A stretch of 10,082 nt of DNA from a virus (lineage: Duplodnaviria; Heunggongvirae; Uroviricota; Caudoviricetes), in IMG/VR virus record IMGVR_UViG_2778261087_000010; one strand, given 5' to 3'. This document shows, piece by piece, positions 1 through 10,082 of the stretch. The first letter of the stretch is position 1; the number at the start of each line of letters is the position of its first letter. A model generated the notes under the pieces. It was not told where the DNA came from. It did not search any database and was given only the letters and a program-made list of their open reading frames with translations. Both the position numbers and the translations under genes were made by a program.

Positions 1-432
1 TCACTCTCCTTTGATGCGAATGTTTACAGCCTGACAAGCCTCTTCGAGAACCCAGTCAACAGCGTCTTTCCATGCTCCGGTTTCGGCTGGCGGATTCTCA
101 CTCTTTACCAGTTCATAGAAACGCACTGCGTTTACCAGTCCTCTTGGTACTGCTGGCGCTGGCGGCTCTCGATACATAGGGATAACACGTCGCGGGTCCG
201 CGTATTTATCTGGCGGACACTGAAATATCTCACCGAAACCATACTGCTTGACATCACGCAGTTCCTCATCATCAGTCCATGCAACAGGTTTCGCTTCCAG
301 CGATGTGAGTGCGATTTTCAGTGCGATTAACATATTGTGATCGTTTTCATCAAGGCCAAACGGGATGTCTTCACGACACGATTCAAGGTCTGCAATTTTG
401 CGTTGTAACCATTTTTTGGGGATAGTTGCCAT
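1..432 (-). CDS. Hypothetical protein (143 aa), last gene of the parM-parR gene train
   Basis: Complete ORF: ATG at 430-432 (minus), stop TGA at 1-3. Strong SD-like AGGAGAGGAG 5' of the start in the 19-bp gap after the parR-like stop. No motif I recognise. Confidence 0.55.
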   Translation of the reverse strand: MATIPKKWLQRKIADLESCREDIPFGLDENDHNMLIALKIALTSLEAKPVAWTDDEELRDVKQYGFGEIFQCPPDKYADPRRVIPMYREPPAPAVPRGLVNAVRFYELVKSENPPAETGAWKDAVDWVLEEACQAVNIRIKGE

Positions 433-451: not shown

Positions 452-766
452 TCACTCTGGGAAAAATGACTGAATGTTCTTTCTTATCTCGCTAGTGCTG
501 TGATTGCTTCCGGTGGCAGGTGCGCTGGCATATTTACTCTGAATATTATTCTTGGCTGGCGCAGCTCCTTCTTCCGGCCATTCGGCCAACCAATAGGCAA
601 ATGCAGGATCGCGTTTTATGAGTGCCAGCCCGGCCAGAAAGGCCGCGCGTTGCGCGCGGCTGCGTTCAGAGGCTGGCAGGCTGTCGAGGTAATTACACGC
701 CTCCCGTTCACTATTGACGGCGACTGGCTTCAGATAGAAACTTATCCGTCTGGTTGGTGTCGTCAT
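452..766 (-). CDS. parR: ParR/StbB-like ribbon-helix-helix centromere-binding protein (104 aa)
   Basis: Internal ATG at 764-766 preceded by AGGAG; the parM stop TAA (771-773) lies inside this RBS. Translation (RRISFYLKP...EREACNYLDSLPASERSRAQRAAFLAGLALIKRDP) matches, from memory, plasmid R1 ParR (RTIAFKLNP...LDSIPQGERSRLNRAALTAGLALYRQDP). The 149-aa ORF in the track (452-901) would overlap parM by 130 nt and is rejected. Confidence 0.75.
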   Translation of the reverse strand: MTTPTRRISFYLKPVAVNSEREACNYLDSLPASERSRAQRAAFLAGLALIKRDPAFAYWLAEWPEEGAAPAKNNIQSKYASAPATGSNHSTSEIRKNIQSFFPE

Positions 767-770
767 TGGT

Positions 771-1730
771 TTACTCCTTGTCCATTGCGTACAGCCCATT
801 AACCAGAGCAAACTGTGGCACCCCGTCCGCGATGAAAGTCGCATTAACTCCGCAGGCTTCGCGGATAGCGGGTGCCACAATCTCCGCCCCACCACCGACA
901 ACCATCACCCGCCCGTAACCCGAAAAACCCGCCAGCGCGCGGATCACGCGTTGTTTCAGTGTTTCTTCCTTTTCACGAATAACCGCCATCAGGCTGGCGT
1001 AATGCGCGTCATTGTGGATGTGCTGGCGCAGCCAGGCTTCATCATGGCGATGTTCGATAATGGTATTGGCGATGTGGTGACTGGTGCGCATACCGTTAGT
1101 GGCCATCACCGACAGTACGGCATCGGCCATCAGAGAAACGCCTACGTGTGGATCGCAAAACACCTGGCTGATACCTGCCAGTTGCCCCTGAACCTTTGCC
1201 ACATCCAGCGTGGTTCCGCCCAAATCCACAATCAGCAGGGATTCAAACGGACTCATGTCAGCCAGTGCCTTAAAGCCAGCCGGAATGGATTCAGGCATAA
1301 CCCGTACGTTACGGATAGTGAATGCTTCGCCGTTCTGGTACTCCACCGGGCGCATAACGTTCGCTTTTTTGCGGTTGATGTTGGTCATGTCCGGCTGTGC
1401 GTTTGTGTCGAAATACTCGCTCAGTGGCAGGGTGACAACCACATCCACCTCCTGTGGCGTGATGCCTGATTTGACCAGCGCGTGATGAATGGCAATGACA
1501 TTCACATCGCTGTACTGGTATTGCGTGTCGGTCGTCTGGACAAAGCGATCGCTGACCGGATCAAAACCATAGCGCACGCCATCAAGCATGTAGTTTGCGG
1601 GCTGCGTGCCACCGAACGGCGCAGACCATTCCGACTTGAAGCTGTTCGGGCTGATGGCGTTGCGGCGTTCGCCGTTCTCAGTCCATGCCAGCTTGATGTT
1701 GGTGGAGCCGTCATCGATACAAATTTTCAT
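771..1730 (-). CDS. parM: ParM/StbA actin-like plasmid segregation ATPase (319 aa)
   Basis: N-terminus MKICIDDGSTNIKLAW plus blocks ISPNSFK, QYSDVNV.AIHHAL, RPVEYQNGEAFTIRNVRVMPESIPAG, LLIVDLGGTTLD and MVVGGGAE align by eye with R1 ParM. RBS AAGGAAAAG upstream of the ATG at 1728-1730. Confidence 0.9.
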   Translation of the reverse strand: MKICIDDGSTNIKLAWTENGERRNAISPNSFKSEWSAPFGGTQPANYMLDGVRYGFDPVSDRFVQTTDTQYQYSDVNVIAIHHALVKSGITPQEVDVVVTLPLSEYFDTNAQPDMTNINRKKANVMRPVEYQNGEAFTIRNVRVMPESIPAGFKALADMSPFESLLIVDLGGTTLDVAKVQGQLAGISQVFCDPHVGVSLMADAVLSVMATNGMRTSHHIANTIIEHRHDEAWLRQHIHNDAHYASLMAVIREKEETLKQRVIRALAGFSGYGRVMVVGGGAEIVAPAIREACGVNATFIADGVPQFALVNGLYAMDKE

Positions 1731-1759
1731 GTCGCTTTTCCTTATGTTGATTAATTAAT

Positions 1760-1870
1760 CGTTTACGGGATTCTGAAATCCCGTTTTTGCCTGTTTTATG
1801 CGCGCTTCATATATCGCGGCGCGTTTTTTGCTCATTTACGGGATTTGTGAATCCCGTTTCTGTCTGTTTT
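1760..1870. promoter_or_regulatory. Candidate parC-like centromere / parM promoter region with two direct copies of a hairpin repeat
   Basis: ACGGGATT-ctga-AATCCCGT at 1765-1784 and ACGGGATT-tgtg-AATCCCGT at 1838-1857, each in the context TTTACGGGATT...AATCCCGTTT followed by a T-run, 73 bp apart. The first lies between the gpA stop and parM start; the second overlaps the last ~20 codons of gpA. Confidence 0.4.
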
Positions 1871-4647
1871 TTGTTTCCACTGGTCAGGCCACCCCGCAGC
1901 AGGTCTGCTTTGCGGCGGGCGCGTTCAGTGGTTTCACTGATTCTCTGTGCGTGCTCTGCGTCGCGGATGGCGCGCAGCATGTCAGAAAGCACGGTAACGG
2001 GTGTTTTCATGGTGTTCTGGTCCTGCTGAAGTGTGGATGCCAGGCGTGCGGCGGCTTCGGGGTCTGATGCCCCCAGCTGTTCCAGATAGCTGGCGACCGG
2101 GTTATGGCGGATCTCCGTGCTGCTTACGCCGTGGTTACGGCTCAGGCGCTGCCAGAGCTGCGTGATCCGGCTGTCCGGGCGGGTATCCGGTTTGCGTACA
2201 ATTTCAAATCCCTGCGGTGCAATGATGCTGCCGTCAACGTACAGACTGCCGCCCCGTAACAGGTGCTGCATCTGCTGTTCACCAATATGCAGGCCGAGAG
2301 ATTCAGCAGACTCCCGCCATTCTTTAGCGAGTAATTCGTGGTTATCAGGCAAAGGCCGCTGCTGTTTGCGGCTCTGTGTCCAGCTCTGCATTTCATCACT
2401 GCTGTTTTTTGCCTGTTTGTCACGAAGCGAACGCATCAGCGCCCGGCGTTCGTGCCGTTTCAGTGAGCGCATCCATTCGTTCACTTCAACGCCGTCAGGG
2501 AGCTGCGGCCACGGTGCTGGCCGTTCTTCCGGCTGTTCTGTCCCGTTGTTGTCCGTTTCCTGTACACGGGGACAGTTATTGCCACGAGTCCAAGGGGCGG
2601 CAGGGCCGCCCTGAAGGTCAAAACCATTTTCGTGGGCGCTGCCTTCCTGTTCCGGTTTACGTCTTACCAGCTTCCAGTTATCCGGGTGCGTGCACACACG
2701 GGAGGATTCCCCGATGAGTGGTGACCAGATCCCGTAAATCTGTACACTCTGTTCGCCGTAATCGTTCAGCTCATCGGCGAGGTCGTAGGCGGTGCGAATC
2801 AGGTAGTCTTTGCGTGGAACAAGTACGCCGCCCTGTTTCTCTATGTAGGTGGCAAAACATCCGGCATCAGCGGCAGCGAGTACCGCATCCATTGCGTCAT
2901 CCTTCAGCCGTTGCGGGCCTTCCGGGTTGCGTGCCATCTGGCTGGCAAGGCGGCGGAGTTCACGCCACACCTGACGGGAGGGGATGCCAAAGAACTGGAA
3001 CTGGCGGACCCGGTGAAGGCGTGCCCAACCGATGGCGCGCTCCACGCTCTCGGCCATTGATTTTCCGGTTTCGTGGTCAACGCGTGGTTTGCCCGTTTTC
3101 GGGTCGATGCCATCCACGGCGCGGCTGTCCAGGTTTTTCCCGATGTAGGTCGCGATATAGCTGGTTGGTGTGCCTTTTGAGCCGTCGACATACTCCACTT
3201 TAAAGCGCGGAGTAATATCATTGCCCAGCTCGTGGCGGTCTTCCTGAATGGCAATATCGCGGGTGATGGCCACGATGCTGTCGATTTCTTCCGGATGAGC
3301 AAAGACCATCATATGCCAGTGCACGGTGCCGTCATGGTGAGGCTCCACCGTGCGGATGCCATACCAGCGCAGGCCGTCGCGGTTCAGTTTTTTGCGGACC
3401 GCCGCAAAAAACGTGTTAACCAGGTAATCGCTGGAGTCGCGCATGGTGGCCCCGTTCCATTTGGGGTTCGGATGACCGTTCTCCGTTGTTGCGTGGTATT
3501 TTGACGGGCAGGTGACAGTCAGAAACACCGCTCTGTCGCCACGGGCTTCGGCCAGAAGTTCCAGTCCCTTCATGGTGGCCATCATTTCTGCCTTACGGTG
3601 AACCGGGTTACTTACTCCCGCGTAATACACTGTCTCGAGATCAATCGTGAACCCGTCTTCGTTTTCCAGCATGAAACTTTTCAGGAAATCGCGTGTTTTC
3701 TCGCGCTGTGCGCGAAACTCGCTTAACGCGTCCTGGCTCAGATAGGGCGATGTTTTTCTGGAAACCAGACAGGCGGCGCGGAGTTGTTCTTCTCTCCACT
3801 CGCAACGTAACAGCCACAGTTTGCGTTTCCACCATTCCGCACAGGTCAGGCGAAGGATTGCGCCCGGCAGCAGCTCCGTGTCCGGTTCGTTCCTCCGGTC
3901 TTTATCTGTTGTCAGTGCGTCATAATGTGGAGGCATGATGTGCAGGTGTAACGCCATGCGGGCCAGCATCTGATACGCCTTCAGCGTTACATCCATGGTC
4001 AGTTCGCCATCGGTCGCGCCAAAGCCATCGCAGAGTTTTTCGAAGGTGCTGCTGAACATCGCCGCCGTCATGGTGGCCAGCGTCTGTATCTGGTGTTTGT
4101 TGAGCTGCGGCAGGTAAAGCAAATCGTCCAGGCGTTCGCGTCCGGCAAGGGAGCGATAACCCGGTGTCAGCCAGCGTCCGTCAGTGCGATCCAGACGTTC
4201 GAATATTTTGCGCAGGGTTCCGCGTGCATAGCGTTCCGCCTGCCAGCTCTTTTTGCCTTTCCGGCGATCAGCTTCCTGTTTTTTGCGCAGGAAGGAGAGG
4301 TGGCGACTCAGAGGTTCTCGCAGATAAACGGGAAGCGCCTTCAGTGTGGCAAAGGCACGGGCTACCGGGTCTTGTTCTGTTGCCCGGCGCTTACTGATGA
4401 TGCTCTGTGCCAGCTTTTCACGCTGTCCGGCTTCCTCAAGGGATGCCATGAGTTTTTTACCCATGGCGGATTGTGCGAAAAAGGCTTCTTCCTTCGCTTC
4501 CTGTTCTTCCTGTGCCCTTTTGTCCGCCTCAAGGTAGTAACGGATGGCGCGTTGCAGGTCGGTTTCAGTTTCCTGCCTGCGCTCCGTAAATCTGGCCGGA
4601 TCAATAGCTGGTCGTGGTTCATTCCAGCTCCATGCAAACGCACTCAT
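1807..4647 (-). CDS. Rolling-circle replication initiator, phage P2 gene A (GpA) family HUH endonuclease (946 aa)
   Basis: HUH motif in GTVHWHMMVFAHPE and paired catalytic tyrosines in TPTSYIATYIGKN (Y-x3-Y), the arrangement of the P2 A / phiX174 gpA family. Start taken as ATG 4645-4647, which overlaps the upstream ORF stop as ATGA; the GTG at 4672-4674 used by the track has no SD. Confidence 0.88.
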   Translation of the reverse strand: MSAFAWSWNEPRPAIDPARFTERRQETETDLQRAIRYYLEADKRAQEEQEAKEEAFFAQSAMGKKLMASLEEAGQREKLAQSIISKRRATEQDPVARAFATLKALPVYLREPLSRHLSFLRKKQEADRRKGKKSWQAERYARGTLRKIFERLDRTDGRWLTPGYRSLAGRERLDDLLYLPQLNKHQIQTLATMTAAMFSSTFEKLCDGFGATDGELTMDVTLKAYQMLARMALHLHIMPPHYDALTTDKDRRNEPDTELLPGAILRLTCAEWWKRKLWLLRCEWREEQLRAACLVSRKTSPYLSQDALSEFRAQREKTRDFLKSFMLENEDGFTIDLETVYYAGVSNPVHRKAEMMATMKGLELLAEARGDRAVFLTVTCPSKYHATTENGHPNPKWNGATMRDSSDYLVNTFFAAVRKKLNRDGLRWYGIRTVEPHHDGTVHWHMMVFAHPEEIDSIVAITRDIAIQEDRHELGNDITPRFKVEYVDGSKGTPTSYIATYIGKNLDSRAVDGIDPKTGKPRVDHETGKSMAESVERAIGWARLHRVRQFQFFGIPSRQVWRELRRLASQMARNPEGPQRLKDDAMDAVLAAADAGCFATYIEKQGGVLVPRKDYLIRTAYDLADELNDYGEQSVQIYGIWSPLIGESSRVCTHPDNWKLVRRKPEQEGSAHENGFDLQGGPAAPWTRGNNCPRVQETDNNGTEQPEERPAPWPQLPDGVEVNEWMRSLKRHERRALMRSLRDKQAKNSSDEMQSWTQSRKQQRPLPDNHELLAKEWRESAESLGLHIGEQQMQHLLRGGSLYVDGSIIAPQGFEIVRKPDTRPDSRITQLWQRLSRNHGVSSTEIRHNPVASYLEQLGASDPEAAARLASTLQQDQNTMKTPVTVLSDMLRAIRDAEHAQRISETTERARRKADLLRGGLTSGNKKQTETGFTNPVNEQKTRRDI

Positions 4648-5033
4648 GGCTGGTATCCCGTCACGCGCTGCCACTCCTGCGAGAAGAGGGCGGAAAGGCG
4701 GTTAAATTCAGCGGTGTATTCACTCAGCGAGGCACACCCGCCAGCAGTGCGATGCGCCAGCATTGCTGCAAATACGGAGGCCGGGGAGTCGTAATACGCC
4801 AGCAGTGATTCGCCGTGCGGTGTCAGGCAGTGCAACGCCAGTCCGTGTGGTGTGAAGTCCACGCGGTAGCAGTCGTCTACTGTGAAATAAAGGGTGTCTG
4901 CATTCTCCGGTTTTGTGGTGCGTGCTCTGTTGTCACGACCACGGATGTAGAGATCAAATAACCCCTGAAGAACGGGAGCCAGACGGGTGTCCTGTGTGCG
5001 CACCCATCTTGTGAAGTCATGAGTGTCAATCAT
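4644..5033 (-). CDS. Hypothetical protein (129 aa), translationally coupled to the replication initiator
   Basis: ORF with ATG at 5031-5033 and modest AGAGAA RBS; stop TGA 4644-4646 overlaps the gpA start. No recognised motif. Confidence 0.55.
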   Translation of the reverse strand: MIDTHDFTRWVRTQDTRLAPVLQGLFDLYIRGRDNRARTTKPENADTLYFTVDDCYRVDFTPHGLALHCLTPHGESLLAYYDSPASVFAAMLAHRTAGGCASLSEYTAEFNRLSALFSQEWQRVTGYQP

Positions 5034-5105: not shown

Positions 5106-5336
5106 TTAATGGAGTTTGTTTTGCTGCTGGATGAGCTGCTGAAGCTCGCGCAGATCATCCGCCAGATAGCTGAAAACAGCGGATGAATAGAGGTTTGAAA
5201 GTTCGCAGCTACGCTCATGCAGCATATTGATGTGCATGATTTTAGCGACGCGGAATGCGCGGGAAAGTCTGCGGTTGATTTCAGTCTGGATGTGACGACA
5301 CGCAGCGTATGCGCGGTGCTGTTTGCGGTTTGCCAT
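5106..5336 (-). CDS. Hypothetical small basic protein (76 aa)
   Basis: ATG 5334-5336 with good RBS AAAGAGG about 8 nt upstream; first gene after the terminator and the 19-bp palindrome. No zinc-finger Cys pattern, so not called Ogr-like. Confidence 0.5.
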   Translation of the reverse strand: MANRKQHRAYAACRHIQTEINRRLSRAFRVAKIMHINMLHERSCELSNLYSSAVFSYLADDLRELQQLIQQQNKLH

Positions 5337-5373: not shown

Positions 5374-5514
5374 CATCCAGAGGTTCCAAGCTCGGGGTGG
5401 TGAGACGTACAGGGTTGGAACTACCGGCAACCAAAGAACCCGGCCCGACCGAAGTCGGCCCCATACGCCCCACCATAATTCGTGTGCGAAAAAGACGTGG
5501 CGATACGGTACGCA

Positions 5515-5536
5515 CAAAAAAACCGCTGGCGCGGTT
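5515..5536 (-). terminator. Candidate rho-independent terminator closing the upstream small-gene block
   Basis: Minus strand reads AACCGC-GCCA-GCGGTT followed by TTTTT (6-bp stem, 4-nt loop, T-run), about 120 nt after the stop of the 5659-5958 gene. Confidence 0.5.
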
Positions 5537-5658
5537 GTGCGCTTTGGTTGTCAGCGGGGTTCCAATCCCGGCACCCGTTTTATGAGGTGCAGCGGAAATG
5601 TAACCTGACTGATTGCGGCATGGCAAGCGGTTTTTTTGTGTGTGCATGCTCTGGTTTC

Positions 5659-8285: not shown

Positions 8286-8339
8286 GGTGTACTTATAAGT
8301 ACACCTTGTGCGCAAGCTTAGTGTACTTATAGGAACACT
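8286..8339. promoter_or_regulatory. Genetic-switch operator region: perfect 20-bp palindrome plus a degenerate second copy
   Basis: GGTGTACTTATAAGTACACC at 8286-8305; GTGTACTTATAGGAACAC within 8320-8339 shares the left half-site and overlaps the RBS of the repressor-like gene. Centres are about 34 bp apart, between the divergent starts at 8247 and 8344. Confidence 0.6.
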
Positions 8340-8343
8340 GTCA

Positions 8344-8652
8344 ATGCTTATCGGTGAAAAAATTAGAGTGATTCGTGAATCAGAGGATTTAACGCGCGAA
8401 GAATTTTGCGGCCTGATTGATGTGCCTATCGGCACTTTGCGTCGTTATGAAACGGGGCGGATTGAAAACATAGGGGGCGAAGTGCTTATCAAGATTGTTA
8501 ATCACCCTCGCTTTTTTAAGTACATGAATTGGCTTATGACGGGAAAAACAAATGAGGCTGCTGGGCAGATCAGTCCGTCTCTCTCCCCTGATGGGCCAAA
8601 AAGCACATCGCCTTCTCAAAAACCCCGCAAGACTGGCACACAGCCCGGCTAA
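8344..8652 (+). CDS. HTH (XRE-type) immunity repressor-like protein (102 aa), P2 C / 186 cI position
   Basis: ATG 8344-8346 with AGGAA 8 nt upstream. N-terminal helix-turn-helix signature EKIRVIRESEDLTREEFCGLIDVPIGTLRRYETG. Immediately upstream of and co-oriented with the integrase. The track GTG start at 8308 lies inside the operators and is rejected. Confidence 0.75.
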   Translation: MLIGEKIRVIRESEDLTREEFCGLIDVPIGTLRRYETGRIENIGGEVLIKIVNHPRFFKYMNWLMTGKTNEAAGQISPSLSPDGPKSTSPSQKPRKTGTQPG

Positions 8653-8701
8653 TCATGGAGCGCTGGGGGCATGGTGGTCTTGTAACGCTGGGGTTTCACG
8701 A

Positions 8702-9676
8702 ATGAGCATAAAATCAATTCCGGGAGGGTATCTTCTTGACATGCGCCCTGAGGGGCGTAAAGGCAAACGCATTCGCAAAAAATTTAAAACGAAATCGGAT
8801 GCAGTTTTATATGAGCGGTGGGTGCTGGCGCAACAGCATAACAATGAGTGGAAAGGAGACTCTATTGATCGCCGTCCTCTGTCAGTGCTTATTGACTTGT
8901 GGTGGAAATACCACGGCCAGCTAATGAAGTCAGGGCATAACACGCGCCTTAAATTGCTGCGCTTGAGTGAGGCAATGGATGACCCGTGCGTGCATAAACT
9001 TAATACAACAATGCTCACCGAGCTACGTGTGTCCAGGATAGAGCAGGGGATACAGCCCAGCACCATAAATCGAGAGATTGGGGCGTTAAGCGCGATGTTT
9101 ACCGCACTCATCTCATCCGGCCATTTTCTTAACGATAACCCCGTTCAAGGCCTTAAAGGAATGAAGGTTAACGAGCGCGAAATGGGATATCTGAGTAAGT
9201 CTGAATGTGTTCAGTTGCTGGATGCACTGGCTGAAAATCCCGATGAACGGCTGGCTGTCGAAATCCTTCTGTCGACCGGGGCGCGATGGGGCGAGGTAGC
9301 GGCACTGGAGCAGCGCCGTGTTCTTCATTGTCGAATCACTTTTTCAAAAACGAAGAACAGCAAAAACCGTACCGTTCCTATTTCTGAAAGCCTGTTTGAA
9401 AAGATCAAAATACGGGGCGGGAAACTGGTGTTTCCGACGCTGGATTATCCATTGGTTCGCGATGTCATCAAAACGGTCGCACCTGATGTTCCTGACGGCC
9501 AGGCTGTTCATGCGCTGCGCCACACCTTCGCCAGTCATTTCATGATGAACGGCGGCAATATTCTGACGCTCCAGAAAATTCTGGGGCACGCAAAGATTCA
9601 GACAACGATGATTTATGCCCATCTTGCGCCGGATTACTTGCAGGATGCGGTGAGATTTAATCCTATTGCTGGGTAA
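8702..9676 (+). CDS. int: Tyrosine recombinase / phage integrase (324 aa)
   Basis: C-terminal catalytic signature HALRHTFASHFMMNGGNILTLQKILGHAKIQTTMIYAHL (R...H-x-x-R...Y) and core-binding-like N-terminus; size near P2 Int. Start at ATG 8702 (MSIKSIPGGYLLD); the longer track ORF from 8552 overlaps the repressor gene. Confidence 0.9.
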   Translation: MSIKSIPGGYLLDMRPEGRKGKRIRKKFKTKSDAVLYERWVLAQQHNNEWKGDSIDRRPLSVLIDLWWKYHGQLMKSGHNTRLKLLRLSEAMDDPCVHKLNTTMLTELRVSRIEQGIQPSTINREIGALSAMFTALISSGHFLNDNPVQGLKGMKVNEREMGYLSKSECVQLLDALAENPDERLAVEILLSTGARWGEVAALEQRRVLHCRITFSKTKNSKNRTVPISESLFEKIKIRGGKLVFPTLDYPLVRDVIKTVAPDVPDGQAVHALRHTFASHFMMNGGNILTLQKILGHAKIQTTMIYAHLAPDYLQDAVRFNPIAG

Positions 9677-9686
9677 GGAGGATGTT

Positions 9687-10082
9687 GTGGAAAAAACAGT
9701 TAATAGCGATTTGCATTTAGGTCAGTACTGGAGAATAGACATTGTATGCGATCCAGAACTTCGAGATGAGGTTGAGCAATATTTTTCTCTACACGATGTT
9801 GGTTTTAGCAAAATTGAAGTTTTTTCCGTCGAAAATCCATATAAACTTGCTCTATTCTTTGATTTCGCGAAGAAGGGTGTGGAGGTTGCAAAAGCCATTA
9901 TGGGACTCTTAGACCGAAATGATATTGAAATAACGATGTATCGTGCTACGGACAGTAGCCCGCAGTCTGTAAAAAGCATCAAATTGCGTAAGTCTGAAGA
10001 CGTAGAGAAATGTAAAGATTTGCTTAGTACGTGTGTTGCAATTGGCGTTCAACGAAATAAGGAAAAAGAGGGGAGTGAATGA
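9687..10082 (+). CDS. Hypothetical protein (131 aa), AT-rich gene coupled to the integrase 3' end
   Basis: Integrase stop TAA 9674-9676 is followed directly by GGAGGA (9677-9682) and an in-frame GTG at 9687. Sampled window ~32% GC. Stop TGA is at the last three bases of the window. The start could instead be the TTG at 9666. Confidence 0.5.
   Translation: MEKTVNSDLHLGQYWRIDIVCDPELRDEVEQYFSLHDVGFSKIEVFSVENPYKLALFFDFAKKGVEVAKAIMGLLDRNDIEITMYRATDSSPQSVKSIKLRKSEDVEKCKDLLSTCVAIGVQRNKEKEGSE

Follow-up and report, generated by a model that had tools for sequence, protein, structure and literature searches.

The window analysed here, a 10,082-nucleotide (nt) stretch of the caudoviricete virus record IMGVR_UViG_2778261087_000010, carries a plasmid-type partition cassette, parM–parR (parMR), at positions 452–1870, directly downstream of the gene for a P2 gene A-type rolling-circle replication endonuclease (gpA). 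We find that the host element is a real and complete P88-like (Xuanwuvirus) P2-type phage, beyond a phage-like island, and that parMR is a near-fixed part of the replication region in this gpA lineage. Homology with unbroken motifs, together with purifying selection and the conservation of both synteny and cis-sites, forms the basis for reading parMR as a functional type II segrosome whose substrate would be the phage's extrachromosomal circles, a reading to which we give an even chance. Both the observation and the idea of an episome are already published (Pfeifer 2021; Rousset 2022), and the feature is real, common and ordinary for its phage group. Our analysis adds that the module is fixed and not cargo, that its proteins form an apparently phage-specific ParMR clade distributed over several enterobacterial genera, that it is preceded by a conserved, two-site centromere-like element, and that a strongly constrained parM stands beside a mosaic parR. 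The cassette occurs in about a quarter of complete Escherichia coli genomes.

Genes in the left 8 kb of the window are all on the minus strand, and the exceptions in the layout are those for a helix-turn-helix repressor and a tyrosine integrase (8308–9676, plus strand). The gpA gene (1807–4674, minus strand; 955 amino acids (aa)) matches Phage_GPA with an E value of 4.3e-131 over residues 194–518, which confirms the position assigned to the cassette by a previous sequence-only reading of this DNA. After a gap of 76 bp it is followed by parM (771–1730, minus strand, read from 1730 to 771) and then by parR (452–766, minus strand, read from 766 to 452), whose ATG lies 4 nt past the parM stop codon and is preceded by AAGGAG. 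ParM is a 319-aa actin-like ATPase, the motor of a type II partition system. Profile matches were obtained to StbA_N (2.9e-82) and to the C-terminal domain of ParM (1.3e-68); the protein can be aligned along its entire length with the R1 ParM structure 1mwk (residues 2–316, E = 8.9e-93) and is 47% identical over its full length to one IncF StbA. The phosphate-1, connect, phosphate-2 and adenosine motifs for nucleotide binding (DDGSTN, MPESIPAG, DLGGTTLD and GGGAE) are all intact and identical to those of R1 ParM.

The adaptor ParR (104 aa) matches Plasmid_stab_B (8.7e-25) and the N-terminal domain of pB171 ParR (2jd3; E = 0.005, residues 6–61). It consists of an N-terminal ribbon-helix-helix (approximately residues 1–65) followed by a variable linker; its conserved tail at the C terminus, NI(Q/R)x(F/L)FPE, aligns with the R1/IncF tail KNAMKLIN and has one invariant Asn in common with it. 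In R1 ParR, the C-terminal tail is the part that contacts ParM. The locus has the composition of a type II partition system, namely an actin-fold ParM ATPase with both of its domains and a small ribbon-helix-helix ParR encoded directly downstream of parM, and the profile searches and the 1mwk alignment agree, at a level far above chance, with the earlier view that the two proteins are close relatives of R1 ParM and ParR. The same reading knew of no active partition in integrating P2-like prophages. Partition genes have in fact been recorded there: RefSeq, PGAP and PHROGs (phrog_691 'partition protein' for ParM; phrog_2515 for ParR) already name both as partition proteins, P88 was picked up in a phage-plasmid screen that led to the proposal of episomal plus integrative states (Pfeifer 2021), and a partition system was reported in about a quarter of P2-like phages (Rousset 2022). 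A functional study of a P88-type parMR did not turn up in the literature searched.

E. coli chromosomes match the window over its whole length. The best of them is 97.7% identical over 10 kb and has a cassette that is 100% identical; there, in NZ_AP042478.1, the window corresponds to the left arm of a complete P2-type prophage adjoining btuC. Along this prophage, int and the repressor gene come first, followed by early genes and then by gpA, parM and parR; a small number of cargo genes separate these from the portal, terminase, scaffold, capsid, lysis and tail genes. The synteny is that of P2, with int and the repressor gene on one strand, the gpA early operon on the other and integration between host genes. 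The cassette DNA is 92–97% identical to that of P88 and of 13 other phage records of the genus Xuanwuvirus (Peduoviridae), and ParM is 98.7–100% identical in most isolated phages, at a cassette DNA identity of 93–97%, and 95% identical in the frameshifted 503458 record. Phage P88 is temperate, mitomycin-inducible and plaque-forming. The term 'phage-like integrative element', used previously, is right about an integrating, P2-like element and falls short of what is here a full inducible, plaque-forming phage type. The only replicase, both in the window and in the annotation of the whole prophage, is gpA; no plasmid-type initiator was found in either. The 319-aa protein belongs to the ParM family, and the locus is chromosomal and inside a complete prophage, the two points on which the sequence-only reading had staked itself beforehand. 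In the 503458 record (NC_049341.1, 3290–4641), several short coding sequences stand in place of each of parM, gpA and the portal gene, and the tblastn match of ParM falls into four pieces; these splits are most likely sequencing frameshifts and not real decay.

Among complete E. coli genomes, parMR DNA was found in 1303 of 5426, including those of O157:H7 and ST131 lineages, at 1441 chromosomal places and at 2 places on plasmid records. About 98% of the genomes with the cassette hold a near full-length copy, and up to three copies occur together in one genome. A probe spanning the gpA/parM junction was fully covered in 1287 of the 1371 genomes with a matching gpA end (94%). Alignments between phages break within the 3′ half of parR, at about window positions 570, 576, 621 and 714, and the genes between parR and the portal gene vary from phage to phage. 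Because the junction with gpA is kept and variation starts at or after the 3′ half of parR, the cassette is near-fixed and is not itself the variable tin/old-type cargo that it had been taken for; the swappable hotspot of that type starts within or after the 3′ end of parR. With variable cargo and defence genes, parMR shares only its position between gpA and the portal gene. PADLOC returned no match for ParM, ParR, gpA or the neighbouring cargo open reading frames (ORFs), and a known defence system was rejected on this basis.

The cargo after parR (window positions 1–432, minus strand, and locus L001 positions 18030–19898) encodes a 143-aa protein (phrog_660) and two others, all of unknown function, together with an XF1762-family protein. 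The XF1762-family protein has a weak Mom-like match (PF25680, 1.3e-4) and matches phrog_1384, 'Mom-like DNA modification protein', at 1.2e-41. It is here, after parR, that the phage has its actual variable hotspot, in which an unrecognised defence or DNA-modification function may reside.

Selection appears to act differently on the two genes. Across nine copies of parM, the mean rates of nonsynonymous (dN) and synonymous (dS) substitution are 0.007 and 0.109 (dN/dS 0.06), and none of the nine contains a stop codon. By contrast, the first 65 codons of parR in the window differ from the P88 allele with a dS of about 0.75 and a dN/dS of 0.33, compared with a dS of 0.03–0.17 in the adjacent parM. 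The window carries a minority parR allele, with about 50% protein identity to P88 ParR, and its downstream cargo differs too. The domain architecture, the C-terminal tail and the first 14 residues are kept across parR alleles; residues 1–14, which include the predicted DNA-reading strand, are identical in seven E. coli and E. albertii copies. Judged from these comparisons, parM is strongly constrained while parR is mosaic, and the 3′ half of parR seems to act as a recombination anchor for the exchange of downstream cargo. No correlation between parR allele and distal-site variant (described below) was found among the copies compared.

ParM homologues with 54–63% identity were traced to contigs of P2-like prophages in Hafnia, Plesiomonas, Serratia and Enterobacter. 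In all four genera, they occupy the same slot, with the order gpA (Phage_GPA), parM, a Plasmid_stab_B gene, variable cargo and a P2-type portal/terminase block, whereas three homologues at 49–50% identity lie in plasmid or conjugative contexts (Rep3, umuDC and Tra genes). A scan of contigs with ParM gave three near-identical loci only; it was a protein search that yielded the more distant homologues. When 105 homologues were placed in a neighbour-joining tree, built without bootstrap and thus suggestive rather than proof, all phage-context ParMs formed one clade apart from the ParMs of plasmids and integrative and conjugative elements (ICEs). In a search of 50,697 phage records, only those of Xuanwuvirus type and the P1-like phage-plasmid D6 proved to encode a ParM from this family. 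Together, these comparisons point to an ancient association of this ParM clade with P2-like phages of Enterobacterales. One further contig, NZ_JBQPOM010000071.1, is labelled Vagococcus sp., a Firmicute, and encodes a ParM that is 98% identical to the E. coli phage protein, followed by a P88-type ParR; it is probably enterobacterial contamination or a mislabelled assembly.

Upstream of parM lie two 20-bp palindromes, each of the form ACGGGATT-N4-AATCCCGT. The distal one (1838–1857), with a GGG-N10-CCC core, sits in the last codons of gpA and is a putative ParR-binding, parC-like site; the proximal one (1765–1784), 73 bp away, is a putative second ParR operator/centromere site. Both lie in a 42-nt direct repeat with a 73-bp spacing, and no further such palindrome occurs in the window or in one whole 34-kb phage genome, leaving two sites only. 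Ten copies from E. coli, E. albertii and Salmonella all have the proximal core GGGATTT...AATCCC without change, whereas their loop and flanks vary. Measured from the parM ATG, GGG-N10-CCC pairs are found at −125/−52 in E. coli, −128/−55 in Hafnia and −131/−59 in Plesiomonas, always 72–73 bp apart. The surrounding region has diverged almost completely in Hafnia and Plesiomonas, yet both sites are kept, against a motif background of 0.2–0.5 per kb. Between the proximal site and the parM ribosome-binding site, the motif ATTAATCAA (1747–1755, minus strand) forms an invariant island in the alignment of E. coli, Salmonella, Hafnia and Plesiomonas, and is possibly a weak promoter −10 element or another regulatory element.

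In its half-site core, AA(A/T)CCC, the phage element is similar to the IncF/R1 iteron AACCCAAAAC. The previously claimed R1 arrangement of centromere, parM and parR survives as the order site–parM–parR; its R1-type centromere does not, since there are two palindromes in place of ten 11-bp iterons. Upstream of the phage parM, no R1-type iteron array was found, while the IncF comparator clearly shows its AACCCAAAAAC repeats. Rather than a parC-like array of many repeats, the phage has a two-site element comparable in size to srpC. Two other explanations for the palindromes were rejected. They are terminator-like only on the plus strand, antisense to all local genes, which excludes sense-strand terminators, and their core shows no compensatory changes, with Hafnia and Plesiomonas keeping GGG/CCC only, which speaks against RNA hairpins. 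Because the GGG/CCC pair is conserved and base pairing is not, we prefer to read them as protein-binding sites: a conserved pair one helical turn apart would fit such sites, most simply for ParR, better than RNA hairpins.

The part of gpA in which the distal palindrome lies is a C-terminal extension of approximately 430 aa past the Phage_GPA domain (residues about 519–955; window 1807–3120, minus strand). It has no Pfam match, and the gpA proteins of related prophages are 785–907 aa long. A GC stem, CGCGC...GCGCG, brackets the gpA stop codon (1807–1809) at window positions 1805–1826 on the minus strand. Phages 520873 and 503458 show an apparently compensatory double change in this stem (CGTGC...GCACG), and another copy shows a G-U-compatible change. 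A small hairpin, of RNA or DNA, may thus separate gpA from parM, on evidence that is weak for a self-complementary, CG-rich sequence.

On these grounds, we propose a model for parMR, in which we infer DNA binding, filament formation, expression timing and biological payoff from sequence comparison. ParR dimers would bind the two GGG-N10-CCC sites upstream of parM through their N-terminal ribbon-helix-helix, the two-site element serving as a minimal centromere and probably also as an operator. The conserved C-terminal tail of ParR would capture the ends of ATP-driven ParM filaments, and filament growth would drive ParR-bound phage DNA circles apart. A consensus scan, which is a crude test, detected no sigma-70 promoter before parM, so that read-through from gpA is the simplest model of expression; parMR is probably co-transcribed with gpA, and its products would appear once infection or induction has switched on the early operon. 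Regarding direct data on expression, parMR has no entry in the enterohaemorrhagic E. coli ciprofloxacin paper or its supplements, and the O157 proteome paper is uninformative. Given that parMR belongs to the early replication operon of an element that is nearly always found integrated, the most likely substrate would be the extrachromosomal circular phage genomes that arise from gpA rolling-circle replication. The payoff would be dispersal or segregation of these circles, allowing efficient replication and packaging and preventing loss at division before integration or lysis. By analogy, it could be AlpAC-like (replication and packaging) or equally SrpMRC-like (protection from loss at division). 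We further suggest, tentatively and with less confidence than the segrosome itself, that a ParMRC clade of their own, long retained with the rolling-circle replicase and equipped with a minimal two-operator centromere, gives P2-like phages of Enterobacterales a regulated extrachromosomal phase, either a heritable carrier or episomal state in addition to integration or an actin-driven organisation of replicating circles. The earlier suggestion of an extrachromosomal phase or a co-opted filament system is plausible.

Several observations weigh against a working segrosome of this kind. P88-type ParR is the shortest of its family and lacks the helix segment TTxxxxxxLxxxxP of the R1, Hafnia and Plesiomonas ParRs, and the centromere has only two sites, compared with ten iterons in R1; with both features combined, a ring-like segrosome assembly may differ or fail. 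The distal site is less strictly kept than the proximal one, with a mismatch in some phages (GGGACT), and the Serratia/Enterobacter branch has another layout, a 14–20-nt inverted repeat with a 26–28-nt spacer. A weak ParR-controlled promoter, TTCAGA-16-ATTAAT, spotted by eye only, may give expression in lysogens, and the benefit of partition in a short lytic cycle is not obvious.

The alternatives differ in what the filaments would do. In one, which we consider rather unlikely, parMR is purely a DNA organiser of the lytic cycle, similar to AlpAC, whose filaments position or spread replicating circles so as to make replication and packaging more efficient, and play no part in inheritance at division. 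The location of parMR directly behind gpA with no detected promoter would suit such a role, as would the packaging of P2-type phages from monomeric circles, and the early-induced AlpAC of prophage CGP3 tethers circular phage DNA and is needed for its efficient replication. However, R1 ParMRC and SrpMRC, the nearest relatives with experimental data, function in inheritance, and in the phage records searched, most P2-like phages, P2 and 186 included, do without the system. A lytic organiser is a sub-case of the general segrosome reading and is inseparable from it by sequence.

A second alternative extends the segrosome to a full plasmid state, such that P88-like phages would be facultative phage-plasmids that lysogenise either by integration or as a stable autonomous plasmid maintained by ParMRC. 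We regard this as unlikely. Episomal in addition to integrative states were offered by Pfeifer 2021 and Rousset 2022, the P2-like phage KS14 is a proven plasmid prophage, and the known phage-plasmid D6 uses a 48% identical ParM. Moreover, pZ1323PEC0009-2 (NZ_CP148288.1) is a complete P88-like genome of 34,461 bp, recorded as a circular 'plasmid' with an intact attP-side junction. However, 1441 of the 1443 places in complete E. coli genomes are chromosomal, the integrase type of pZ1323PEC0009-2 is chromosomal in all 308 genomes that carry it, and the single circular record is equally explained by excised or induced phage DNA in the culture. The sole replicase, gpA, lies in a repressor-controlled early operon with lytic functions, with no theta-type replicon such as KS14 RepB, and up to three copies coexist per genome. 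The chromosomal distribution, a population-genomic and not a physical test, argues against a regular or stable plasmid lifestyle. As an observation on the record itself, pZ1323PEC0009-2 was deposited as a non-mobilisable plasmid from a feline E. coli isolate, and several expected genes, such as those for portal and tape measure, are missing from its gene table, suggesting frameshifts.

It is more doubtful still that parMR is a competition device, with prophage ParR or its parC-like sites destabilising incoming plasmids or related phages that use the same sites, by incompatibility or exclusion, a defence-like role of the kind held by other genes in this slot. The slot between gpA and the portal gene is the P2 defence hotspot, and the far greater divergence of parR than of parM (dS about 0.75 versus 0.03–0.17) resembles the allele turnover of conflict systems. 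However, neither protein matches PADLOC, the module is fixed and not swapped, the first 14 residues of ParR and the site cores are the same across alleles, the IncF parC iterons are arranged quite differently, and incompatibility needs no intact, strongly constrained ATPase. Finally, the likeness to plasmid genes might mean that a plasmid cassette was captured by chance and is an inert hitchhiker unused by the phage, an idea that we find barely credible and that is effectively refuted by selection and synteny: the dN/dS of parM, the near full-length copies, a slot kept across five genera down to 54% protein identity, the monophyletic phage clade and the conserved cis-sites.

Two further features of the window are of note. 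Rfam matches to the C4 antisense RNA (RF01695, 84 bits; 5393–5480, minus strand) and the isrK Hfq-binding RNA (RF01394, 70 bits; 5516–5590, minus strand) fall in an otherwise unannotated gap upstream of the gene for a 76-aa 'derepression protein' (5106–5336; Pfam Derepression). The pair resembles an RNA-controlled antirepressor switch of the P1/P7 immI or Gifsy type, here within a P2-like phage. Just past the integrase, at the btuC-side end of the prophage, an ORF (9666–10082, plus strand; at least 131 aa) that matches no family and is low in G+C (about 0.43) may be a moron at the attachment-site end.

If a heritable or organised extrachromosomal phase is true of these phages, a quarter of the E. 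coli P2-like prophages would be facultative plasmids or users of a viral cytoskeleton, and prophage stability, lysogenisation, the spread of the adjoining defence cargo and phage-made 'plasmid' contigs would have to be rethought. The two-site element would then also provide a naturally minimal type II centromere for mechanistic study.

A comparison with known systems places the phage module closest to ParMR of P88 and other Xuanwuvirus phages, which is the same module with the same flanks, already annotated as ParM or partition protein. With the ParMRC of R1, NR1 and IncF plasmids (the stbAB/parA locus), it shares the same two protein families, the gene order, translational coupling, a ParR N-terminal domain that is about 43% identical, the tail motif, and cis-sites upstream of parM with an AA(A/T)CCC core. 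However, the phage system follows a rolling-circle replicase gene in the genome of an integrating phage, its ParR is shorter, with one helix segment missing, and its ParM falls in a separate clade. Furthermore, R1/IncF parC consists of two sets of five direct 11-bp iterons around a strong promoter, whereas the phage has two palindromic sites of 16–20 bp, 73 bp apart.

Integrating elements offer two further parallels. SrpMRC of SXT/R391 is a type II locus on an integrating element that, like the phage, replicates as a circle by a rolling-circle (HUH) enzyme; it lowers loss of the excised form, and four short direct or inverted repeats suffice as its centromere. SXT/R391 is an ICE, and SrpM and SrpR are distant from R1 ParM and ParR, whereas the phage proteins are close to them. 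In Corynebacterium glutamicum, the integrated prophage CGP3 likewise encodes an actin-like filament protein and a DNA adaptor that binds its own upstream region (AlpAC/alpS), and the system is induced early and needed for efficient replication of the circular phage DNA. It differs in belonging to another actin-like family, in having the adaptor gene first and in its Gram-positive host. Among phage-plasmids, P1-like D6 has the 48% identical ParM and lives as a plasmid, and Burkholderia KS14 is a P2-like plasmid prophage with RepB plus ParA, in which a P2-like virion module is joined to plasmid maintenance. D6 and KS14 have plasmid replicons, whereas phages of the P88 type encode an integrase along with gpA, and practically every genome that carries one has it integrated.

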